Sequence record: MN850579.1
Reading direction: 5' to 3' (one strand)
DNA length: 64,000 nt
Source: Escherichia phage mogra
The notes beneath the pieces were generated by a model. The model saw only the letters and a program-made list of their open reading frames with translations. It did no database searches and had not been told where the DNA came from. A program made the translations under genes and the position numbers. Below are positions 11,642 to 48,003 of the stretch, piece after piece (within the stretch, counting starts at the first letter, position 1; each line of letters opens with the position of its first letter).

Positions 11642-12223
11642 ATGGCTAGTTTAATTTTTACCTATGCCGCTATGAACGCTGGTAAGTCTGCTTCATTACT
11701 TACTGCCGCACATAACTATAAAGAACGTGGCATGGGTGTATTAGTTCTTAAACCGGCTATTGATACTCGCGATTCAAAAGGTGAAATAGTCTCTCGTATT
11801 GGTATTCGTCAGGACGCCAATATAATTACAAAAGACATGGATATCTTTGAATTCTATAAATGGGCTGCAGCACAAAAGGATATTCACTGCGTATTTGTTG
11901 ACGAAGCTCAGTTCTTAACTACTGAAAAGGTGTATCAACTTAGTCGTATTGTTGACGTATACAATGTGCCGGTAATGGCATATGGACTACGAACAGATTT
12001 TAAAGGTAATCTATTTGAAGGTTCTCAAGCATTAATGGCTATTGCCGATAAGCTTGTTGAACTTAAAGGGGTCTGTCATTGCGGTAAAAAGGCCACAATG
12101 GTAGCTAGAGTCACGGAAGACGGACTTCCAATTACAGATGGCAGTCAAATTGAAATTGGTGATACTGATAGATATGTGTCATTATGCCGGAAGCATTGGA
12201 ACGATTTGACAGGGTTGTTATAA
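11642..12223 (+). CDS. tk: thymidine kinase
   Basis: P-loop AMNAGKSASLL; C-terminal zinc motif CHCGKKA...C; matches recalled T4 Tk N-terminus MASLIFTYAAMNAGKSASLL. Confidence 0.93.
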   Translation: MASLIFTYAAMNAGKSASLLTAAHNYKERGMGVLVLKPAIDTRDSKGEIVSRIGIRQDANIITKDMDIFEFYKWAAAQKDIHCVFVDEAQFLTTEKVYQLSRIVDVYNVPVMAYGLRTDFKGNLFEGSQALMAIADKLVELKGVCHCGKKATMVARVTEDGLPITDGSQIEIGDTDRYVSLCRKHWNDLTGLL

Positions 12224-14635: not shown

Positions 14636-15621
14636 TGAAAACAATTATGAAAGGCTACTTTGGTAGCCACCTTTATGGAACGTCTACTCCTGAATCTGAC
14701 GTCGATTTTAAAGAAATTTATGTCCCTCATGCTCGTGATATCTTGACCGGTAACGTTAAAGAACACATGAGCAAGAACACGAATAACACATCTTCTAAGA
14801 ACACAAAAGACGACGTGGACCATGAGTTGTATAGTCTCAAATATTTCTTTAAACTAGCTGCGGATGGTGAAACTGTCGCATTAGATATGCTTCACACTCC
14901 ACAAAGTCTAGTAGTTAAATCTGATTTGCCTGATGTATGGAAGTATATTCAAGATAACAGGTCTCGTTTCTATACCACTAACATGAAATCTTATTTAGGG
15001 TATGTCCGTAAGCAAGCTTCTAAATACGGTGTCAAGGGTTCTCGACTGGCTGTTCTTCGTCAAGCCCTTAAACGTTCTAATGAATGGGGACAATACTTTG
15101 ATAATGGCGCAGTAATTCGTTTATCACATATGAAGAATGTTCTGCCTGTAGGTGAATTTGCTTCGTGGGTTGAAACTGAAAACGAGAAAACAGGTAAGCA
15201 AACATTCTATAATCTGTTGGACCGTAAATTCCAAGACACATTAACCAATAAAGAGTTCAATGCCATCCTGGTTAAACTAGAAGAGAACTATGGCGAACGT
15301 GCTCGTAAGGCAGAAGCTAACGAAGGTATTGACTGGAAAGCATTGAGTCATGCATGTCGTGGTGGACTTCAATTATTGGAAATTTACAAAACCGGCGACC
15401 TGGTTTACCCACTTCAGGATGCTCCATTTATTCTCGATGTTAAGCTTGGTAAACATACGTTTAAAACTGTACAAGAATTCCTAGAAGATATTGTTGACCA
15501 AGTTGAACAAGCATCAGAAAAAGCCGCTAAGAACGGTATGCAACAAAAAGTAGATATGAGTTTCTGGGACGACTTCCTTGAACAAGTCTATCTCGAAAAT
15601 CATAATTCTTACTATAAATAA
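14632..15621 (+). CDS. nucleotidyltransferase-fold protein (Pol-beta superfamily-like)
   Basis: N-terminal GS...D-x-D signature (YFGSHLYGTSTPESDVDF); 329 aa. Confidence 0.5.
   Translation: MMKTIMKGYFGSHLYGTSTPESDVDFKEIYVPHARDILTGNVKEHMSKNTNNTSSKNTKDDVDHELYSLKYFFKLAADGETVALDMLHTPQSLVVKSDLPDVWKYIQDNRSRFYTTNMKSYLGYVRKQASKYGVKGSRLAVLRQALKRSNEWGQYFDNGAVIRLSHMKNVLPVGEFASWVETENEKTGKQTFYNLLDRKFQDTLTNKEFNAILVKLEENYGERARKAEANEGIDWKALSHACRGGLQLLEIYKTGDLVYPLQDAPFILDVKLGKHTFKTVQEFLEDIVDQVEQASEKAAKNGMQQKVDMSFWDDFLEQVYLENHNSYYK
15613..15620 (+). promoter_or_regulatory. late-promoter-like box TATAAATA
   Basis: Exact TATAAATA about 33 nt upstream of ATG 15653. Confidence 0.4.
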
Positions 15622-23671: not shown

Positions 23672-25485
23672 AAATTGAAAAAGAAATTGAAGGATTAATT
23701 TATAAAACTAATAAAGATCTTTTGAACGAGAATGCTAATAAAGATTCTCGTGTTTTTCCAACTCAACGGGACCTTATGGCTGGTATTGTGTCTAAGCACA
23801 TTGCCAAAAATATGGTCCCGTCTTTTATTATGAATGCGCATGAAAGCGGAATCATTCACATGCATGATATTGATTATTCTCCTGCTCTTCCGTTTACCAA
23901 TTGCTGTTTAGTCGATTTAAAGGGGATGCTTGAGAATGGATTTAAATTAGGCAATGCTCAAATTGAAACGCCTAAATCTATTGGCGTTGCTACTGCAATT
24001 ATGGCACAAATTACCGCACAAGTTGCTTCACACCAGTATGGCGGAACTACATTTGCGAATGTCGATAAAGTTCTTTCTCCTTATGTTAAACGCACATACG
24101 CTAAACATATTGAAGATGCAGAAAAATGGCAAATCGCTGATGCGTTGAATTATGCTCAATCCAAAACAGAAAAAGATGTCTATGACGCGTTCCAAGCTTA
24201 TGAATATGAAGTAAATACTCTCTTTAGTTCAAACGGACAAACGCCTTTTGTAACAATTACATTTGGTACGGGAACTGACTGGACTGAACGAATGATTCAG
24301 AAGGCAATTCTTAAAAACCGCATTAAAGGTCTTGGTCGTGATGGAATAACTCCTATTTTTCCTAAACTTGTTATGTTTGTTGAAGAAGGTGTTAATCTTT
24401 ATAAAGATGATCCAAACTATGATATTAAACAACTTGCGTTAGAATGTGCAAGCAAAAGAATGTATCCTGACATTATTTCGGTTAAGAATAATAAAGCTAT
24501 TACCGGTTCTTCAGTTCCTGTTTCTCCGATGGGTTGCCGTAGTTTTTTGAGTGTGTGGAAAGATTCGACTGGTAATGAAATTCTTGATGGACGTAATAAT
24601 CTTGGTGTTGTAACACTGAATCTTCCTCGTATCGCATTAGATTCTTATATTGGAACACAGTTCAATGAACAGAAATTTGTTGAGCTATTTAACGAACGAA
24701 TGGACCTGTGTTTTGAAGCCTTGATGTGTAGAATTAGTTCTTTAAAGGGTGTTAAAGCGACTGTTGCTCCTATTCTTTACCAAGAAGGTGCATTCGGTGT
24801 TCGTCTTAAACCTGATGACGATATAATTGAGTTATTTAAAAACGGTAGAAGTTCAGTGTCTTTGGGATACATTGGTATTCACGAATTGAATATTCTTGTC
24901 GGTCGTGATATTGGGCAAGAAATTTTAACTAAAATGAATGCTCATCTTAAACAGTGGACTGAAAGAACCGGATTTGCTTTTAGTTTATATTCTACTCCTG
25001 CTGAAAACCTTTGTTATCGCTTCTGTAAACTTGATACAGAAAAATATGGAAGTGTAAAGGATGTTACAGATAAAGGCTGGTACACTAACAGTTTCCATGT
25101 TTCAGTAGAAGAAAATATTACTCCGTTTGAAAAAATTTCTCGTGAAGCTCCTTATCATTTCATAGCGACCGGCGGTCACATTTCTTATGTTGAACTTCCA
25201 GATATGAAAAACAATTTAAAGGGGCTTGAGGCCGTCTGGGATTATGCTGCACAACATTTAGATTATTTTGGTGTTAATATGCCAGTGGATAAATGTTTTA
25301 CATGTGGAAGTACCCATGAAATGACTCCTACTGAAAATGGATTTGTTTGTTCAGTTTGCGGAGAAACTGATCCTAAAAAGATGAACACAATAAGAAGAAC
25401 ATGTGGTTATTTGGGAAATCCGAACGAACGCGGATTTAATCTCGGTAAAAATAAAGAAATCATGCATAGGGTTAAACACCAATGA
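23668..25485 (+). CDS. nrdD: anaerobic ribonucleoside-triphosphate reductase
   Basis: 605 aa uninterrupted; C-terminal zinc ribbon CFTCGS...CSVCGE and glycyl-radical motif RRTCGYLG. Confidence 0.95.
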   Translation: MKIEKEIEGLIYKTNKDLLNENANKDSRVFPTQRDLMAGIVSKHIAKNMVPSFIMNAHESGIIHMHDIDYSPALPFTNCCLVDLKGMLENGFKLGNAQIETPKSIGVATAIMAQITAQVASHQYGGTTFANVDKVLSPYVKRTYAKHIEDAEKWQIADALNYAQSKTEKDVYDAFQAYEYEVNTLFSSNGQTPFVTITFGTGTDWTERMIQKAILKNRIKGLGRDGITPIFPKLVMFVEEGVNLYKDDPNYDIKQLALECASKRMYPDIISVKNNKAITGSSVPVSPMGCRSFLSVWKDSTGNEILDGRNNLGVVTLNLPRIALDSYIGTQFNEQKFVELFNERMDLCFEALMCRISSLKGVKATVAPILYQEGAFGVRLKPDDDIIELFKNGRSSVSLGYIGIHELNILVGRDIGQEILTKMNAHLKQWTERTGFAFSLYSTPAENLCYRFCKLDTEKYGSVKDVTDKGWYTNSFHVSVEENITPFEKISREAPYHFIATGGHISYVELPDMKNNLKGLEAVWDYAAQHLDYFGVNMPVDKCFTCGSTHEMTPTENGFVCSVCGETDPKKMNTIRRTCGYLGNPNERGFNLGKNKEIMHRVKHQ

Positions 25486-39835: not shown

Positions 39836-40471
39836 ATGAAAACTACACCAATCACTATCGCTATTGACGCAATTGTAAAACAAGCTTCATCTCTTGCCAC
39901 TATGGCTAAAGTAATTAGTCAAAACCATGCTCGTTATAATGCTATTCTAGAAACTCTTCGACGCCCTGGACTTAGTAATTATGAAAGCCGGGTAATTATT
40001 ACAGGTGTTGGTAAGAATGCTAATATCGCAACTAAAGCTTCCGAGACTTTTGCTTCACTAGGTATTCCTAGCATGTATTTGAATACCGGGCATTATTCTC
40101 ATGGTGACGCAGGATTTATTGCACCTAATGATGTATTAGTTCACATCAGTCGTTCTGGTAAGACTGAAGAAATGATAGGTGTTGCTAAACATCTTCGTAT
40201 GATTCGTCCTCAGGTTAAACAGATTCTGTTACATTGTAACCCTGACATTCCACAAGAATACGAAGCTCTTTTTGATTATACGTTCTGTACCGGTATCGCG
40301 GTAGAAGTTGACGAGAACTCTTTAGCTCCGACAATGTCTACTACATTGTTGTTAGCGCTTATCGATACGTTCGCTATCAACCTTTCGTCTGAACGTGGAT
40401 TTACCTCTAATGATTTCCTTAAGTTCCATCCAGGCGGTGCACTAGGTGCCATGTTACGAGGCGAACAATGA
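39836..40471 (+). CDS. SIS-domain sugar-phosphate isomerase, arabinose-5-phosphate isomerase (KpsF/GutQ)-like
   Basis: ITGVGKNANIATKASETFASLG, HISRSGKTEE, LAPTMSTT and HPGGALG match recalled KpsF/GutQ SIS signatures; no CBS domains. Confidence 0.78.
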   Translation: MKTTPITIAIDAIVKQASSLATMAKVISQNHARYNAILETLRRPGLSNYESRVIITGVGKNANIATKASETFASLGIPSMYLNTGHYSHGDAGFIAPNDVLVHISRSGKTEEMIGVAKHLRMIRPQVKQILLHCNPDIPQEYEALFDYTFCTGIAVEVDENSLAPTMSTTLLLALIDTFAINLSSERGFTSNDFLKFHPGGALGAMLRGEQ

Positions 40472-40611
40472 AAGCAATAACAATAGGACTTTTACTATTG
40501 ATGCTTGCCATGACTATCTACTGGAGCTTAACGGCTCCGGTAATGATTCCAACACTTGTAATTGGATGGATTATGATTGGACTACAAGCAAAGTATGAAT
40601 GCTTTAACTAG
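40468..40611 (+). CDS. 47-aa two-helix membrane peptide
   Basis: ATG 40468 overlaps upstream stop (ATGA); MKAITIGLLLLMLAMTIYW...PTLVIGWIMIGL; not in track. Confidence 0.45.
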   Translation: MKAITIGLLLLMLAMTIYWSLTAPVMIPTLVIGWIMIGLQAKYECFN

Positions 40612-40652
40612 AATAGTGTACAATACTCCTACTTACCAATGAGGACTTCAAC

Positions 40653-42338
40653 ATGAAAAAAGCTGTTATTCTTGGTGCTGGACTGGCAACTCGTTTGTAT
40701 CCAATAACGCATCATATTCCTAAGGTGCTTGTGAACTATAAACAAGACACTATTCTGAGCAATTTGTATACAATTTATTCTGACCTTGGCGCAGATGAAA
40801 TTATTGTAGTAGTTCATTCAAAATTTGCTGAAACTGTTCGAGCTTATTGTGAGCAAGAAGGGTTCAATGTGACTATTCGTACAGTTGATGAAGCGTATGG
40901 TTCTGCTTATGCTCTTGCTAAATTACACAAAGATTTAGACGGTCATAATGTAATTGTTAACTGGTGCGATATTATTCCTGATTTTGGTTCATGGTCTTGG
41001 AATGTTAACGCAATCTATGTTAAGGGTGATGAATGTCGATATAATTTCGACGGTGAAAATATCACTAACGTAGGTTCAACAGGTGGTAATGTTGTAGGAA
41101 TTTATCAGTTCAAAGACTGGGAATTCTATATGGGTTCTACTGATGAGGAAATTCATGAATACTGCAAAGGACGTGATTTCGTAGAATTCCTTTACAGCGC
41201 CGCATTCAATAAATCAGAGCTTATGAATCTAATTGATTTAGGTGATATGCCTAAACTTGAAAAGGCTCATGAAGTTCGTGAACTTAATCGTAGTTTTAAC
41301 GCAGTTGAAATTGGTGAAGAAACTGTAACTAAATTCGCATTAACCGAACAGGGTCGAGCTCTTCAGAAAGATGAGATTTCATGGTATTTGAAAGTGAAAT
41401 CAGATTCAGTTCCTCAGTTAGTTTCTGTTAATGAAAATAACTTTGAAATGGAACGCATTAAAGGTAAGCCAGCATTTGAATATATTAAATCCAAATCAAG
41501 TCTTGCTCGTCCACAAATTGTTGATGCAATTTTAGATGCACTGAAATTCAGCACAGACACTTATTTTGTAAGTCCTGAAACTGTTCGTCGTGATTTCACT
41601 AAAGAATTCTATACGAAAGTTATTGATCGTTGTGAAAGCATTCAACCATTGATTGATTCATTTGGTAAAATCACGCATGTGAACTACACTAAGATTGGAC
41701 GTCTGAAGCCAATGCTGAAACAAGCTTTAGAACACCTTATTCGTTATCATAACCGTTCTCAGGGACAGTACTCTGTTATTCATGGCGACCCGAACTTCAG
41801 TAATACTATGATTACTGATAATGGCGAAGTCAAGTTTATCGACCCTCGTGGATATTTTGGTGAAACCAAGATTTACGGGCCGAAATTGTACGACGAAGCT
41901 AAAGTGCTTTACGCTGTTTCAGGTTATGATGAATTCAACGCTAATCCGACCTGGGGGCAGTTTACTATTGATGAAACAACTTGTAATGTGACTATTAACA
42001 TCAATCCATTAGTTTACAAATATGGAAAGATGAGTTCGTTTAACGAGTATCATCATTTGGCAGTGGCAATTATCTGGATTGCATTAGGTGGTTATTTCAA
42101 GAATAATCCACTTAAAGCGGTAGCCGCATATTATAAAGGTATGGAACTTCTGACTAAGCAATTACGTAACATGGGCCGTGTACTTCAGGACGGCTCTATT
42201 AGTTATGACGTAGCAGAACCTGTAACGGCTACTCTGATTACAAAAAATCCTGGTAAGTGGGTACTAACTGATAAAGAAACTGGTGTTTCCTATCGTCCAA
42301 TAGGTGGCGATATCACTCATCAATGGGAACGAATCTAA
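40653..42338 (+). CDS. bifunctional sugar-1-phosphate nucleotidyltransferase / APH-fold sugar kinase
   Basis: N-terminal LGAGLATRLYP...PK (GxGxR NTP-transferase motif); C-terminal VIHGDPNFSNTMITDNGEVKFIDPRG (kinase catalytic and metal loops); 561 aa. Confidence 0.72.
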   Translation: MKKAVILGAGLATRLYPITHHIPKVLVNYKQDTILSNLYTIYSDLGADEIIVVVHSKFAETVRAYCEQEGFNVTIRTVDEAYGSAYALAKLHKDLDGHNVIVNWCDIIPDFGSWSWNVNAIYVKGDECRYNFDGENITNVGSTGGNVVGIYQFKDWEFYMGSTDEEIHEYCKGRDFVEFLYSAAFNKSELMNLIDLGDMPKLEKAHEVRELNRSFNAVEIGEETVTKFALTEQGRALQKDEISWYLKVKSDSVPQLVSVNENNFEMERIKGKPAFEYIKSKSSLARPQIVDAILDALKFSTDTYFVSPETVRRDFTKEFYTKVIDRCESIQPLIDSFGKITHVNYTKIGRLKPMLKQALEHLIRYHNRSQGQYSVIHGDPNFSNTMITDNGEVKFIDPRGYFGETKIYGPKLYDEAKVLYAVSGYDEFNANPTWGQFTIDETTCNVTININPLVYKYGKMSSFNEYHHLAVAIIWIALGGYFKNNPLKAVAAYYKGMELLTKQLRNMGRVLQDGSISYDVAEPVTATLITKNPGKWVLTDKETGVSYRPIGGDITHQWERI

Positions 42339-42724
42339 TGCACCGCGTAGAAAACATGCTTAATCTTTGTTTTGATGTCGATGATTGTATAACAGAGTGG
42401 AATAACAATCGTGATTACGTGAACTTCAAGCCAGACGTCGAAATGGTGTCTGCCATTAATGCCCTGTATGATGCAGGGCATACCATAACGCTTTACACTG
42501 CTCGCGGTATGAAGTCAGTCGGTCCTGGTCGTATAGCAATTGACATTCTCCCAAGTCTGATTCAGAACTTGGCAAACATTGGCTTGAAGTACCATAATTT
42601 GCTAACACATAAACCAGTATATGATTGGATTATCGACGACAAAGCTATGCGTCCTGACGAATTCAAAGCTCTTATGAATAAAGGCGAATTCGAAACATTT
42701 AAATCATATAAACCGAATCTATAA
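42338..42724 (+). CDS. HAD-superfamily phosphatase
   Basis: Motif I CFDVDDCIT, Thr/Arg motif LYTARG, C-terminal DD (WIIDDKA); ATG 42338 overlaps upstream stop (TAATG). Confidence 0.6.
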   Translation: MHRVENMLNLCFDVDDCITEWNNNRDYVNFKPDVEMVSAINALYDAGHTITLYTARGMKSVGPGRIAIDILPSLIQNLANIGLKYHNLLTHKPVYDWIIDDKAMRPDEFKALMNKGEFETFKSYKPNL

Positions 42725-42784
42725 TAATTTAAGTAAGACCTGCAAAAAAAAACCATCGCATCAATTAACGCGAGATGCAAAAAA

Positions 42785-43945
42785 ATGAATACTTTTAAAA
42801 TCGGAACGAATTTTGATTTAGCTCTTCTTGATAAAATCGTAGAGCTCAATAAAACTTATCCTAATAGCTTGATAAATGAAGTATACGGCTCTACAAGAGA
42901 AATGGCTTTTGTAGCAGCCAGACCTGATTTTAGGCTTCCTGACATTGACAAAAAGATGTTAGAAGATTATGTTAAACGTTGTAACGAATTAGGTATTTGC
43001 TTTAACTATACACTCAACACGATAAATCCTGGTTCAAAAAGAGAACTAGTTGAGTGGAAGAAGAAAGCTATTCAGGATTATGTTCAGTATCTTTGGTCAA
43101 TAGGCGTATGGCGTATTACTATCGCTAACCCTGTTGTTATGGAAATTGTTCGTGAAGTCAATAAAGACATTGAGATTGAAGTTTCAACAATTCTACATGT
43201 CGATGCTGTAACTCAAATCAAATACTTGCATGACCAGTATAATATCAAAAAGGTCTGCTGTGGAATTCATAAGAACCGTTCAGTTTCTTTCCTGAAGCGT
43301 GCAGCAGAGTTTTGCAATAAGAACAATATAATATTTGAAGTTCTTGTAAATGAGTTCTGTTCTAATGCTGGTAAAGGGTATACAACACATTGTAGCTATC
43401 GTGACTCTTGCTATATTTTCCATAGTACTGATGTTACAGCTGATGATGCTAAATCCTTAAACGGATATCCAATGCAGCACTGTATTAAAGCTCGTGATAC
43501 AGACCCATTTAACTGGTTGAGAACTCGTTTTGTTCGTCCTCAAGATTTGAAACTTTATAATGATATCGGTATCACTCAATTCAAAGTTTCAGGACGTACA
43601 GGTAGCACAGACTACATTTTGAAAGTTCTTGAAGCATACGCTTCTGAAAAGTTTGAAGGTAATTTGTTAGAACTGTGGAAGCCTTTAGAGACTATTTTCA
43701 CTCTTGAAAACGAAACTGAGTTTTCACATACAGTAAATATTGAAACCTCTTTGTTAGATGGCTTTTTAGAAAAAAGGTGGTTCAGACATCCAGATTTCGA
43801 TTGTGCTAATGAAATCTGCGGGACGACGTGTACATATTGTGAAAGATATTATAAACGTCAATTATCTAAAAACGGGTTAGCAGAAAACTCTATATCTATT
43901 ATTGATATAACTAACTCTGATGACGCTTTGAGGTACCCGGAATGA
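42785..43945 (+). CDS. peptidase-U32-family protein (family includes O2-independent hydroxylases)
   Basis: Block pattern FNYTLNT...ITIANPVV...EIEVST...VLVNEFC...G...HCSYRDSC parallels recalled U32 TIM-barrel signature; second cluster CANEICGTTCTYC. Confidence 0.5.
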   Translation: MNTFKIGTNFDLALLDKIVELNKTYPNSLINEVYGSTREMAFVAARPDFRLPDIDKKMLEDYVKRCNELGICFNYTLNTINPGSKRELVEWKKKAIQDYVQYLWSIGVWRITIANPVVMEIVREVNKDIEIEVSTILHVDAVTQIKYLHDQYNIKKVCCGIHKNRSVSFLKRAAEFCNKNNIIFEVLVNEFCSNAGKGYTTHCSYRDSCYIFHSTDVTADDAKSLNGYPMQHCIKARDTDPFNWLRTRFVRPQDLKLYNDIGITQFKVSGRTGSTDYILKVLEAYASEKFEGNLLELWKPLETIFTLENETEFSHTVNIETSLLDGFLEKRWFRHPDFDCANEICGTTCTYCERYYKRQLSKNGLAENSISIIDITNSDDALRYPE

Positions 43946-44181
43946 TTTCTAGAAAAACTTTTAACCACCGACTTAATGAAGAGATTTTGACTATGAAACT
44001 GAACACTAATGAACAAATTCTTAAAAAGGCCCTGATGGGCCTGTTTGAAACTAAAGCGGCTAAAGTGATTAAAGAACCTGTTCAATTGGAATACTACGCT
44101 GATGCATTTCTTCATAGTGTTCTTGGAAGTATCGATGCTGAATCTTTACGTTATATCAACATTGTCAAGAAATTCAAATAA
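43942..44181 (+). CDS. hypothetical small protein
   Basis: ATGA overlap with U32-like gene; 79 aa; no motif. Confidence 0.45.
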   Translation: MISRKTFNHRLNEEILTMKLNTNEQILKKALMGLFETKAAKVIKEPVQLEYYADAFLHSVLGSIDAESLRYINIVKKFK

Positions 44182-44223
44182 GCTTTACGAATTGAGTATA
44201 TAATAAATTGTATTGAGGTAAAC

Positions 44224-44940
44224 ATGGGAAAACATAACACAATGAAATATATCAAAGCCGCAGATTTTCAAACCGCATTTAAAGCAGTCAATCGTGAAAT
44301 TTTAGAAAACCCGGAATTCGTAACTGATTCTCGTATTGGACGTTGTAATGAAATTGGGTCTATGACAGTAGTTGTTGACACTCCATCATCATTCAAAATG
44401 ACCGACCCACGTATTAACCGCATCTCTTATGAATATGCCGAAGACTTCTGGAAGTTTATGATTTCCGGTGGTACCAACGCAGAAGAAGCGTTTAAGGCAT
44501 ATCCTAATGTCGCTAAATTTATTTCTAAACCAAAATCAGATGTTTTGCCGGCGAACTTCAACACTTTCTATGGTCCTCGCATTGCGGCCCAATTACCAGC
44601 TCTTCTAAAAGAACTTAAAGAGAAGCCTAACTCTCGAAGAGTTGTGTTCCAAATTCTAGAAAGTTCTGATCAGGCTTTGCTTGATTCGGACGAAACGCTT
44701 GAATATCCATGTACTGACTCAGTGACTTATTATATTCGTGATGGTAAGCTTTATACCCACTGTCATATGCGTTCTCAGAACTGTGCTGTTGTTATGCAGT
44801 TGGATTTTTATCTCCAAGGAAAATTACTTCATTATATCGCTAACGAATGTGGTGTAGAAGTTGGTGATTATACTCATACCATGGTAAGTGCCCATGTGTT
44901 TGAACGTGATTTTGATTATGTTAAAGGATTCCTTGACTAA
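44224..44940 (+). CDS. thymidylate-synthase-fold pyrimidine C5 enzyme, dCMP hydroxymethylase-like, divergent
   Basis: PNSRR phosphate loop; catalytic Pro-Cys (YPCTD); MRSQN...QLDFY with Asp at the ThyA Asn177-equivalent position; EVGDY...H. Confidence 0.78.
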   Translation: MGKHNTMKYIKAADFQTAFKAVNREILENPEFVTDSRIGRCNEIGSMTVVVDTPSSFKMTDPRINRISYEYAEDFWKFMISGGTNAEEAFKAYPNVAKFISKPKSDVLPANFNTFYGPRIAAQLPALLKELKEKPNSRRVVFQILESSDQALLDSDETLEYPCTDSVTYYIRDGKLYTHCHMRSQNCAVVMQLDFYLQGKLLHYIANECGVEVGDYTHTMVSAHVFERDFDYVKGFLD

Positions 44941-45839
44941 TGGCTATTTTCCGCGTACCAATCTTGAGTATGCGGTCTTATGAAACTGGACAGTATGCTA
45001 TCCTTAAGGATGGCAACTTCCAACTTCATTTGCACCGTGCTAATCCAGGCGATGTGATTACATATCCACGTAATGCATCTGATATTAAAGAATGTGAACG
45101 TCTTTTCCCAGAATTTAAGTTTGTTCCATTATGGTATAAAGATAACGCGTATAACACTCGTAAATATTTCTGGTCCGAAAATGAATTTGTGGTTGATTCA
45201 TTAATTGCTTATTATGATTGTGATTTTCTAATCACAGATATCACTGGATATAACGGCGCTTTTGATGTAGAATTCAATTTCAATATCACGGCAGACCCTA
45301 ATAAACCACGTTTTTATATTGGCGAATTCTTAAAAACCGATATGTTGTCAGTTAATAGTTCACTTCAAACTACTGTGTTGAATGAACGTCAAAAAGAAGT
45401 GCTGGTTAACGCAGGTGCAGATGGTAATAAGATTATCGTAACTCAGAAAGTTATACGTCCTTCCATCATGCAGCGTCTTGTAGGTGATTTGGCTCCTATT
45501 CATCTAGATGGTATTTTTCATCCATTTCGAATTAGTGACCCGTGCTATCGTTTTGAACAAGTGGTTGAATGTGCAATTCAATTAGGCCAACCGCTTTATA
45601 TAACCGATCCAAATAATAGCTTCGACAGAAATAAGTATCCTGAAGAAGCGCTGATTCGAATTTTTAAACCAACTAAAACTGAGTACTATCAAATTCTTAA
45701 AGGACGTCCGAAGATTCAATATTTCGAAAATCCTGAAGAAGTATTTCATCCAGGTCTTGGTGAGTTCATCTACTTTAATGCTTTAATTTCTTCGCCGTAT
45801 AATATACCTAAATACGAAGATGTCGTAATCGAGGAATAA
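44940..45839 (+). CDS. hypothetical protein (299 aa), candidate DNA sugar transferase
   Basis: TAATG-coupled to the TS-fold gene; no recognisable motif; function inferred from context only. Confidence 0.5.
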   Translation: MAIFRVPILSMRSYETGQYAILKDGNFQLHLHRANPGDVITYPRNASDIKECERLFPEFKFVPLWYKDNAYNTRKYFWSENEFVVDSLIAYYDCDFLITDITGYNGAFDVEFNFNITADPNKPRFYIGEFLKTDMLSVNSSLQTTVLNERQKEVLVNAGADGNKIIVTQKVIRPSIMQRLVGDLAPIHLDGIFHPFRISDPCYRFEQVVECAIQLGQPLYITDPNNSFDRNKYPEEALIRIFKPTKTEYYQILKGRPKIQYFENPEEVFHPGLGEFIYFNALISSPYNIPKYEDVVIEE

Positions 45840-45840
45840 A

Positions 45841-46389
45841 ATGGCTAAAATTATTTTAGTAGATGGCCCGGATAATGCCGGTAAAACAACTTTCATTAAT
45901 GACATAATGGAAATTAGTGAAAGATATGTAAAGATTGATTTCCCTAAACGAACAGTTGATGGACGTTTCGATGTTAAGTCTCGAAATGAAGTTGGTTGTT
46001 TCGAAACGATGTTGAATTATTTAGACCCTACTAAGATTTATCTGTTAGACCGTGGATATATTAGTAACTGGGTTTATGGACGTATTCGACAAGATGCGGA
46101 CTCTGTTCTTGATGTTTATGAGCAGGATTATGTTCGTCTTTGCCAAAACCATGATGTGTTCACAATTATTTTAACACGTAACGAAATGACTGAAAGTTTT
46201 GAAGACGACCTTATTACTTTGTCTTCATTCGGTTTTAATACAGTCATTTCACATTTTGAAGAGTTTGCAATTCATAACAAAATCCAAACGTATCAATTAC
46301 TTAATCATGATGGTGCTAACAAAGTTATAGGATTTAATGCAAGCGAACGTAATGGTTTGATTACAGAAATCATCAAATGGGCTCGTTAA
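45841..46389 (+). CDS. P-loop nucleotide kinase (thymidylate-kinase-like)
   Basis: P-loop VDGPDNAGKTT; DRGY motif (LLDRGYISNWVYGR) reminiscent of Tmk DRY/DRH; 182 aa. Confidence 0.62.
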   Translation: MAKIILVDGPDNAGKTTFINDIMEISERYVKIDFPKRTVDGRFDVKSRNEVGCFETMLNYLDPTKIYLLDRGYISNWVYGRIRQDADSVLDVYEQDYVRLCQNHDVFTIILTRNEMTESFEDDLITLSSFGFNTVISHFEEFAIHNKIQTYQLLNHDGANKVIGFNASERNGLITEIIKWAR

Positions 46390-46487
46390 GAGCCATTTAA
46401 AGTTTTAAATGCTGTATAACCCTTAGTATATAATCGTCTTATCTTTTAAACATGAGTAAAATATAATGATGCCTATGGAAAAATACA

Positions 46488-47660
46488 ATGTCTGATTTAA
46501 AATCTCGTCTGATTAAAGCTTCTACTTCTAAAATGACTGCAGACTTGACTAAGTCTAAGCTGTTTAATAATCGTGATGAAGTCCCTACTCGTATTCCGAT
46601 GTTGAATATCGCACTAGGTGGTGCTCTGAATGCAGGATTGCAATCAGGCTTGACTATTTTTGCTGCACCTTCTAAACATTTTAAAACATTGTTTGGACTG
46701 ACCATGGTTGCAGCATATATGAAGAAATATAAAGATGCAATTTGTTTGTTCTATGATTCGGAATTTGGTGCTTCAGAATCTTATTTTCGATCAATGGGTG
46801 TTGATTTAGACCGAGTAGTTCATACTCCGATTCAATCTGTCGAACAACTTAAAGTTGATATGACTAATCAGCTTGACGCGATTGAACGCGGCGATAAAGT
46901 TATTATCTTTATCGATTCAATCGGTAATACTGCATCTAAGAAAGAAACCGAAGATGCGTTGAACGAGAAAGTTGTAGGTGATATGTCTCGTGCTAAGGCA
47001 CTTAAATCTCTTTTCCGTATTGTGACTCCTTATCTGACTATTAAAGATATTCCATGTGTTGCAATCAACCATACAGCAATGGAAATTGGCGGATTGTATC
47101 CTAAAGAGATTATGGGCGGCGGTACAGGTATTCTTTACTCGGCTAACACTGTATTCTTTATCTCTAAACGTCAGGTTAAAGATGGCACTGAATTGACCGG
47201 TTATGACTTCACGTTGAAAGCAGAAAAATCTCGCACAGTTAAAGAGAAATCTACTTTCCCAATCACAGTTAATTTTGATGGTGGTATCGACCCATTCAGT
47301 GGCTTGTTAGAAATGGCAACTGAAATTGGATTTGTTGTTAAGCCTAAAGCCGGTTGGTATGCTCGTGAATTCCTTGACGAAGAAACAGGCGAAATGATTC
47401 GTGAAGAGAAATCGTGGCGTGCTAAAGCTACTGATTGTGTAGAATTCTGGGGACCGTTGTTTAAACACAAACCTTTCCGAGATGCAATTGAAACTAAATA
47501 TAAACTAGGTGCTATCTCTTCTATTAAAGAAGTTGATGACGCTGTTAACGACCTTATTAATTGCAAAGCAACAACTAAAGTTCCTGTTAAAACTTCTGAT
47601 GCTCCGTCTGCAGCAGATATAGAAAACGACCTTGACGAAATGGAAGATTTCGATGAATAA
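46488..47660 (+). CDS. uvsX: recombinase UvsX (RecA-like)
   Basis: MSDLKSRLIKASTSKMTADLTKSKLFNNRDEVPTRIPMLNIALGG... and ...GWYAREFLDEETGEMIREEKSWRAK... match recalled T4 UvsX; 390 aa. Confidence 0.95.
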   Translation: MSDLKSRLIKASTSKMTADLTKSKLFNNRDEVPTRIPMLNIALGGALNAGLQSGLTIFAAPSKHFKTLFGLTMVAAYMKKYKDAICLFYDSEFGASESYFRSMGVDLDRVVHTPIQSVEQLKVDMTNQLDAIERGDKVIIFIDSIGNTASKKETEDALNEKVVGDMSRAKALKSLFRIVTPYLTIKDIPCVAINHTAMEIGGLYPKEIMGGGTGILYSANTVFFISKRQVKDGTELTGYDFTLKAEKSRTVKEKSTFPITVNFDGGIDPFSGLLEMATEIGFVVKPKAGWYAREFLDEETGEMIREEKSWRAKATDCVEFWGPLFKHKPFRDAIETKYKLGAISSIKEVDDAVNDLINCKATTKVPVKTSDAPSAADIENDLDEMEDFDE

Positions 47661-47994
47661 TCTCGTTGATTTAAATCTAGAAATCGTTGATGAATCCCCT
47701 TCTTCGGAAGGGGAAGACATTCGCAAAGAACGAGTGTTTAATGAATCTCTTAAAATTGTCCGTTCAGCAATGGAAAATGTCATTCAAGAGATTCTGATTA
47801 CACTTGAAGACGGTTCCCATCATATAGTCTATATTACAAAACTAGACTGGGTTGATGGTAAAATCGTAATGGACTTTGCAGTTCTTGACCAGGACAGAAA
47901 AGCAGAACTTGCACCACATGTTGAAAAATGTGTTACAATGCAAGTACAACAAGCTTTTAATGAACGGACCAAGAAAAAATTTAAATTCTTTTAA
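47653..47994 (+). CDS. 40: gp40-position protein
   Basis: ATG 47653 overlaps uvsX stop; 113 aa between uvsX and 41 as in T4. Confidence 0.65.
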   Translation: MNNLVDLNLEIVDESPSSEGEDIRKERVFNESLKIVRSAMENVIQEILITLEDGSHHIVYITKLDWVDGKIVMDFAVLDQDRKAELAPHVEKCVTMQVQQAFNERTKKKFKFF

Positions 47995-48003
47995 GGAGTT
48001 ATC

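Follow-up and report, generated by a model that had tools for sequence, protein, structure and literature searches.

The DNA of phage RB69 bears mono- and di-arabinosylated 5-hydroxycytosine (5hoC) (Lee et al., Nucleic Acids Res 2026, PMC13326640). In RB69, the thymidylate-synthase homologue gp48 has been shown experimentally to make 5-hydroxy-dCMP (5hodCMP), asparagine at the position of E. coli ThyA residue 169 is the mark of such 5hodCMP synthases, the genes adjoining gp48 make UDP-arabinofuranose, and the sugar of the final product is joined to 5hoC by an ether linkage (PMC13326640). Flavin dependence has been reported for 5hodCMP synthases. The RB69 homologue of T4 gp1, gp159, phosphorylates 5hodCMP to 5hodCDP in vitro, and gp159 and the synthase together put 5hoC into E. 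coli DNA (PMC13326640). The same paper lists a further RB69 gene product, RB69p045, as 'Nucleotide kinase' solely on the basis of fold hits, and we found neither an assay nor a discussion of it in the text (PMC13326640). This kinase is not mentioned in the Thanatos paper or in Thomas 2018, and we found no experiment on it in the literature covered, which excludes He et al. (Nat Chem Biol 2026) and Mahler et al. (Cell Host Microbe 2025), two possible sources of such tests. The arabinosyl-5-hydroxycytosine pathway was worked out only in 2025-2026, the modified DNA gives a large group of coliphages with therapeutic potential, and of Acinetobacter phages, protection against restriction and CRISPR, and the kinase gene, here called gp45, is the one conserved gene of the cassette without an assigned step.

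We analysed this gene in a 64,000-nucleotide stretch of Escherichia phage mogra (MN850579.1; hereafter the window), positions 40000-48000 of which are 98% identical to many RB69-like T4-type coliphage (Mosigvirus) genomes. The cassette genes all lie on the plus strand. They include an arabinose-5-phosphate isomerase (39836-40471; RB69 gp55; KpsF/GutQ E 8.5e-32, KdsD E 2.8e-30), a bifunctional sugar-1-phosphate nucleotidyltransferase/sugar kinase (40653-42338; RB69 gp52:53, an AfhE analogue, with N-terminal NTP-transferase matches) and a HAD-type phosphatase (42323-42724; RB69 gp51, an AfhF analogue; E 4.3e-13 to the capsule biosynthesis phosphatase model TIGR01689, below its cut-off), the roles of the last two being those given for the RB69 proteins (PMC13326640). 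After a U32-family gene come the 5hodCMP synthase (44224-44940; RB69 gp48; Pfam Thymidylat_synt, E 2.3e-15), which carries the D169N signature (MRSQN) with Asp at the N177 position, and GT1, the candidate for the first DNA or nucleotide arabinosyltransferase (44940-45839; RB69 gp46:47, assigned by fold in PMC13326640; phrog_3891, E 1.5e-154). The reading frames at 44940-45839 and 40653-42338 are single and uninterrupted here (299 and 561 aa, respectively); in the RB69 reference they are split into 46/47 and 52/53, and these splits have been attributed to sequencing errors (PMC13326640).

The U32-family gene (42785-43945) corresponds to RB69 gp50, which has been labelled 'sugar or heterocycle reductase' (PMC13326640); its relatives are called 'peptidase', and it has weak similarity to UbiU. 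The gene is present in the clusters from enterobacterial phages (L003, L006 and L008-L016) and is absent from those of Acinetobacter and Pseudomonas phages (L004, L018-L020 and L034), as it is from WG01 (L002) and a number of metagenomic clusters. Among the U32 proteins are oxygen-independent hydroxylases, namely RlhA (5-hydroxycytidine in 23S rRNA), TrhP and UbiU/V, and the U32 protein of the window could be an anaerobic back-up route to 5hoC.

The kinase gene gp45 (45841-46389, plus strand; 182 aa) is the last gene of the cassette, ahead of the RecA-like recombinase gene uvsX (46488-47660, plus strand), which forms the downstream boundary. The GT1 gene overlaps the synthase gene by 1 nt, at 44940, and gp45 starts after a gap of 1 nt behind the GT1 stop (45839), an arrangement that suggests coupled expression of the three genes. 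A scan of the cassette for promoters and terminators returned sites no more numerous than in shuffled sequences. The gp45 protein shares 98.9% identity with RB69 ORF045c and 100% with its counterpart in several other isolates, and it matches the profile of phrog_761, a family labelled thymidylate kinase, over its full length (E 5.7e-45, residues 1-180). Homologues occur in 343 phage records of the phage collection. Values of dN/dS are 0.05-0.20 for comparisons with homologues of 57-99% identity, dS being saturated in the more distant of these pairs, and 24 positions are invariant in a family alignment that reaches down to 33% identity. We conclude that gp45 is a real, conserved phage gene under purifying selection. 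An exhaustive search of 1.84 billion representative proteins with the family profile yielded only 301 clusters at E <= 1e-3, which indicates a specialised phage family and not a housekeeping thymidylate kinase (Tmk). Two observations concern the surroundings of the gene: the uvsX downstream of the kinase is interrupted by a homing-endonuclease or intein-like insertion in the relatives L014, L033, L034 and L039, and the window contains, at the position expected for a T4-type thymidine kinase, a further nucleotide kinase (193-aa reading frame, 11642-12223, plus strand; Walker A AAMNAGKS) that has no bearing on the present finding.

The gp45 protein has the three-dimensional fold of thymidylate kinases (TMPKs), and its best structural matches are all nucleotide kinases. 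The Walker A motif VDGPDNAGKTT (45859-45891, plus strand; residues 7-17) contains the family-invariant residues G9, D11, N12, G14 and K15, and is followed by an FPKR motif (45940-45951, plus strand; residues 34-37; F34, P35 and K36 invariant) similar to the FPxR motif with which TMPKs of eukaryotes and poxviruses bind phosphate. An LLDRGY motif (46042-46059, plus strand; residues 68-73; D70 and R71 invariant) is equivalent to the DR[YH] motif of TMPKs and precedes the invariant residues S75, N76, V78 and Y79. The LID-equivalent segment LTRNEMTESFEDDLI (46171-46215, plus strand; residues 111-125) holds invariant R113, F120, D122 and D123, and with its FxDDxI motif is a signature particular to the gp45 family. 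The TMPK pattern Gx[DE]xxGK[ST] thus occurs as GPDNAGKT and the pattern DR[YH] with S..[YF] as LDRGYISNWVY, with G9, D11, G14, K15, D70, R71, S75 and Y79 invariant or nearly so. Family-wide, the invariant catalytic and acceptor motifs are GxDNxGK[ST], FPK, DR, S..Y and R113; the P-loop, in which class I TMPKs have a catalytic arginine, has N12, and the LID-equivalent segment, in which class II enzymes have several, has one invariant arginine, R113. The intact P-loop, DR motif and LID-equivalent arginine, in a protein with the TMPK fold, point to a working ATP-dependent kinase. The P-loop residue D11, at position 3 of the motif, presumably corresponds to the TMPK carboxylate that contacts the deoxyribose 3'-OH. 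A carboxylate of the kind typical of dNMP-binding TMPKs is kept in every branch of the gp45 family, which favours a free deoxynucleotide over DNA as the probable acceptor.

By sequence criteria, however, gp45 stands outside the Tmk family. The protein itself has no match to Pfam PF02223, and its Pfam matches amount to P-loop noise below threshold; of 20 family members, 13 match PF02223, all of them below the cut-off (best E 2e-4), and the score of gp45 against the NCBIfam dTMP kinase model TIGR00041 is 16.3 bits, vs. a cut-off of 83.25. A single-sequence search of PDB sequences returned P-loop noise only (RecA, thioredoxin). The family profile, used against the PDB, matched YorR of the SPbeta prophage over its full length (E 4.2e-5) and thymidylate kinases through the P-loop/FPxR and DR..S..Y regions, with positions 3-45 covered, and hhalign of the family against E. 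coli Tmk gave a probability of 80%. The hhalign alignment to E. coli Tmk has a gap where TMPKs carry the thymine-binding F..R segment, and confidence in the gp45 model is low there too; since residues 31-50, the base-binding segment, are modelled at low confidence and show no F..R motif in that alignment, base specificity is not readable from the gp45 sequence. The preliminary description of the locus had placed a Tmk-like kinase, distinct from T4 gp1, at the end of the cassette on the strength of the VDGPDNAGKTT and LLDRGY motifs. Both motifs and the terminal position hold, as does the lack of any sequence similarity or close structural similarity to T4 gp1 or RB69 gp1; the resemblance to Tmk holds for fold and motifs and fails at the thresholds of the curated Tmk models. 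We conclude that gp45 is Tmk-like in fold and motifs, yet is not a member of the Tmk family as that family is defined by sequence.

A survey of gene order, covering 17 IMG/VR loci, several GenBank phages and metagenomic contigs, shows how tightly gp45 is linked to the synthase and to GT1. In the phage collection the three genes co-occur in a ratio of approximately 1:1:1 (kinase, 343 records; GT1, 346; synthase at >=60% identity, 342), with matching counts by genus. In more than 30 loci the kinase gene is no more than three genes from a ThyA homologue with Asn169 and Asp177 (E. coli numbering). The usual order is synthase-GT1-kinase, with the kinase most often directly 3' of GT1 and the reading frames touching or overlapping; in WG01, MY02 and PM2 the kinase is set apart from GT1. 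The linkage recurs in unrelated phage backbones: in contigs of PolA/DnaB type (L027 and L028, with family-A polymerase, DnaB and ThyX), in T4-like marine or metagenomic contigs (L038-L044) and in the metagenomic contig L023, which also carries genes for an FMN reductase, a SIS isomerase and a bifunctional nucleotidyltransferase. The FMN-reductase-family gene of L023 (9068-9613), which there follows a kinase-glycosylase fusion and precedes the other two, fits the flavin dependence reported for 5hodCMP synthases. Kinases of the gp45 family are absent from hmC phages, for example from the Tequatrovirus records of the phage collection, and, apart from one phage considered below, the family is found essentially only with D169N synthases.

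A parallel arrangement occurs in Pootjesviridae, which attach galactose and glucose, not arabinose, to their DNA, and in which the arabinose genes are absent. In Rhizobium phage RL2RES, gene 096 codes for a D169N synthase, gene 097 for a homologue of GT1 (E 5e-11) and gene 098 for a P-loop kinase only weakly similar to the gp45 family, and gene 094, two genes upstream of the synthase, encodes a gp1-type kinase (genes 094 and 098, L037:11923-12486 and 14841-15476). The Tmk-like kinase of RL2RES has a P-loop of class-I type, GLDRTGKDT, and its similarity to the gp45 family is marginal; the 100-149 kb region of the RL2RES genome contains no relevant genes. Since the order of the trio is kept there without the arabinose genes, the kinase goes with the synthase and the first transferase, and not with the arabinose genes. 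We conclude that gp45, lying beside both an Asn169 ThyA homologue and the first glycosyltransferase, is a conserved gene that belongs integrally to the DNA-modification cassette, and we propose that kinase, synthase and first glycosyltransferase are inherited as a three-gene unit. Separately, a very distant kinase relative (L021:7980-8540, 32% identity) lies near a ThyA homologue (L021:9684-10586) that has Asp at both 169 and 177 (MRSCD...D) and is a dCMP-directed enzyme of another type, a hint that Tmk-fold kinases may pair more widely with ThyA homologues that modify dCMP.

The exception is Morganella phage vB_MmoM_MP1, in which an orphan copy of the kinase gene lies directly upstream of uvsX (L029:8995-9525; KX078569.1 20500-21030). 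This copy is intact and has all of the family invariants. The thymidylate synthase of MP1 is canonical (td, with D169 and N177), and no 5hodCMP synthase, GT1 or sugar/arabinose gene occurs in 130 of the 163 kb of the genome, the other ~33 kb being a structural-gene region. The orphan copy suggests either that the substrate of the kinase is not exclusive to the 5hoC pathway or that the rest of the cluster was lost recently.

No gp1 homologue was detected by tblastn within the 64-kb window. In RB69 the gp1 gene is at 77877-78611 and ORF045c at 24050-24595, which would put the corresponding gene ~7 kb past the left end of the window, and lineages that have a gp1-type kinase retain both kinases, T4-like phages and, with their analogous pair, Pootjesviridae alike. 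The preliminary description, which had called for a search for a gp1 homologue elsewhere in the genome, is borne out on that point in RB69-like phages. It had also argued that a private kinase is kept on account of a modified dNMP that the general phage kinase handles poorly, and had read the cassette as one of hmC type. The activity of gp159 on 5hodCMP leaves the first of these statements unsupported for that nucleotide, and the published product, arabinosyl-5-hydroxycytosine derived from 5hodCMP, contradicts the second (PMC13326640). Overall the earlier interpretation is partly supported: fold and cassette membership were right, the modified base was wrong, and the argument from redundancy is weakened, since a gp1-type kinase suffices in E. 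coli and a second 5hodCMP kinase therefore looks redundant.

The strict linkage of gp45 to 5hodCMP synthases nevertheless makes 5hodCMP, or a compound derived from it, the likely substrate. According to the hypothesis that we favour, the thymidylate-synthase homologue (44224-44940) would turn dCMP into 5hodCMP, gp45 would most likely convert 5hodCMP to the diphosphate in an ATP-dependent reaction, host NDP kinase would make the triphosphate, the phage polymerase would incorporate 5-hydroxy-dCTP, and the glycosyltransferases would decorate the 5-OH after incorporation. In T4-like phages gp45 would act alongside the dNMP kinase of gp1 type, whose function it may in part duplicate. We hold with moderate confidence that gp45 is a kinase dedicated to 5hodCMP, that it was inherited as part of the module and that it overlaps partly with gp1 in function.

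The position of gp45 behind GT1 lends itself to another reading, that of the preliminary description with the base corrected, in which GT1 arabinosylates 5hodCMP itself, gp45 phosphorylates the bulky arabinosyl-5hodCMP that a gp1-type kinase refuses, and the first sugar enters DNA by way of the polymerase. The published experiments do not separate mononucleotide from DNA as the substrate of the first arabinosylation, and so leave room for a kinase of this kind; moreover, single glycosyltransferases were inactive on 5hoC-DNA with UDP-Ara (PMC13326640). This reading would account for the touching or overlapping GT1 and kinase reading frames, for an almost perfect co-occurrence of the two genes (343 vs. 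346 records) and for the recurrence of the synthase-GT-kinase order in the hexose-modifying Pootjesviridae, and it would give gp45 a non-redundant job, gp1-type kinases already covering 5hodCMP. MP1, however, keeps the kinase without GT1, WG01, MY02 and PM2 keep the two genes apart, and in the lineages with fused kinases described below no GT1 homologue is detectable between the synthase and the kinase that follows it. A family-B polymerase would also have to accept a pentosyl-dCTP at every C. Glucosylation in T4 is post-replicative, and this too counts against a sugar-bearing precursor, as does the finding that DNA is the acceptor of the second and third sugars (PMC13326640). We consider the reading unlikely, and quite unlikely in the form in which GT1 glycosylates 5hodCMP, gp45 alone phosphorylates the product and the polymerase builds DNA from sugar-bearing dCTP. 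An unlikely reading, too, is that gp45 is a general pyrimidine dNMP kinase with an activity missing from gp1-type kinases, for example on dCMP or dUMP/dTMP, and is linked to the cassette only physically. The intact MP1 copy upstream of uvsX, in a phage with a canonical td and no 5hodCMP synthase in 130 kb, would fit it, as would the TMPK fold and motifs of gp45 and the annotation of RB69 gp1 as inactive on dCMP and dAMP. Against it, MP1 is the one exception to an association essentially restricted to D169N synthases and lacking in hmC phages, the family is tiny and phage-specific, and gp45 fails all curated Tmk models.

The hypothesis of a dedicated 5hodCMP kinase has its own difficulty in the distant relatives of gp45 that are fused to DNA-glycosylase domains, fusions that a pure pool enzyme does not explain. 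Eight 50%-identity clusters of such relatives (P0059, P0060, P0064, P0067, P0069, P0074, P0076 and P0112; 314-357 aa; for example L023:8001-9074, L025:1446-2390 and L027:6205-7173) have a C-terminal MBD4-like HhH-GPD domain, and one cluster (P0141; L026:200-1129) has a UDG-superfamily domain. The fused domain matches the MBD4 glycosylase domain with E 3.8e-9 and keeps the catalytic Asp motif, the kinase parts align to the gp45 family with 99.7% probability (E 5.5e-27, hhalign), and the fusions adjoin D169N thymidylate-synthase homologues. The loci were found through an exact-match contig index; searches of IMG/VR, by single sequence and by alignment, returned no fused proteins. One idea is that the fusions might serve to remove 5-hydroxyuracil:G mispairs arising from deamination of 5hoC. 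[quoted passage not shown] Because relatives are fused to HhH-fold domains, we tested the 5-HMUDK hypothesis, and we rejected it: the bona fide 5-HMUDK of phage M6, gp54, is a member of phrog_800, gp45 is one of phrog_761, and homology is confined to Walker A, with hhalign aligning 25 columns of M6 gp54 (the Walker A) to the gp45 family and 38 columns to the fused subfamily. The M6 gp54 P-loop, GCNGSGKTT, lacks the TMPK-type carboxylate, which in gp45 fits a free 3'-OH. The fused C-terminal domain is MBD4-like and not aG/PT-PPlase-like, and is unrelated to M6 gp51. In addition, gp45 itself has no DNA-binding domain, and an ether-linked sugar product needs no phosphate activation, so that we regard a DNA-level role as very unlikely. 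A role in the UDP-arabinose branch, as a kinase of a sugar or other small molecule, or as an inactive structural partner, is extremely improbable. Enzymes are already assigned to the sugar steps, with the bifunctional protein's C-terminal domain as the kinase and the HAD protein as the phosphatase; the trio persists in galactose-using Pootjesviridae without arabinose genes; the structural matches lie with nucleotide kinases; and the catalytic residues of gp45 are invariant. We accordingly ranked sugar-kinase and PPK2-like roles low.

Phosphorylation of 5hodCMP is thus the reading of gp45 that we prefer, and the residual interest of the gene lies in the retention of a second kinase and in the glycosylase fusions. 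Knowledge of the gp45 substrate would settle why two dNMP kinases are kept and whether attachment of the first sugar precedes or follows replication, and would yield an enzyme with which 5-hydroxy-dCTP or glycosylated dCTP could be made in vitro; a pre-replicative first sugar, if true, would be the first example in nature of a nucleotide glycosylated ahead of replication. The annotation of gp45 as a nucleotide kinase is correct and was already published in 2026. What is new here is the approximately 1:1:1 co-occurrence of the trio, its recurrence in unrelated phage backbones, the existence of glycosylase-fused relatives and the finding that gp45 is not a 5-HMUDK.

Set against known systems, gp45 is the same gene as RB69 ORF045c (RB69p045, NP_861735.1) of a sister Mosigvirus, with no difference of substance, and DLP3 gp78 is the Acinetobacter-phage counterpart of RB69p045. 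Like T4 gp1 (1dek/1del) and RB69 gp159, gp45 is a phage P-loop kinase that would serve modified-cytosine DNA. Like the 5-HMUDKs (Pseudomonas phage M6 gp54 and SP10 gp186N), it is a phage P-loop kinase that accompanies a thymidylate-synthase homologue and whose distant relatives, like SP10 gp186, are fused to a helix-hairpin-helix glycosylase-fold domain; 5-HMUDK acts on DNA, however, whereas the probable acceptor of gp45 is a free deoxynucleotide. YorR of the B. subtilis prophage SPbeta (PDB 2axp/3kb2) differs in its Walker A, GPDCCFKST, which has no Gly before the Lys, and it offers no function that could be transferred to gp45. Compared with Tmk (PF02223, TIGR00041; for example vaccinia A48R, 2v54, the M. 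tuberculosis enzyme, 1g3u, and E. coli Tmk), gp45 is shorter, at 182 aa, scores far below the curated cut-offs, has an FxDDxI signature of its own and lacks the F..R segment in the alignment to E. coli Tmk, and its family, MP1 excepted, is essentially limited to phages that make 5-hydroxycytosine.
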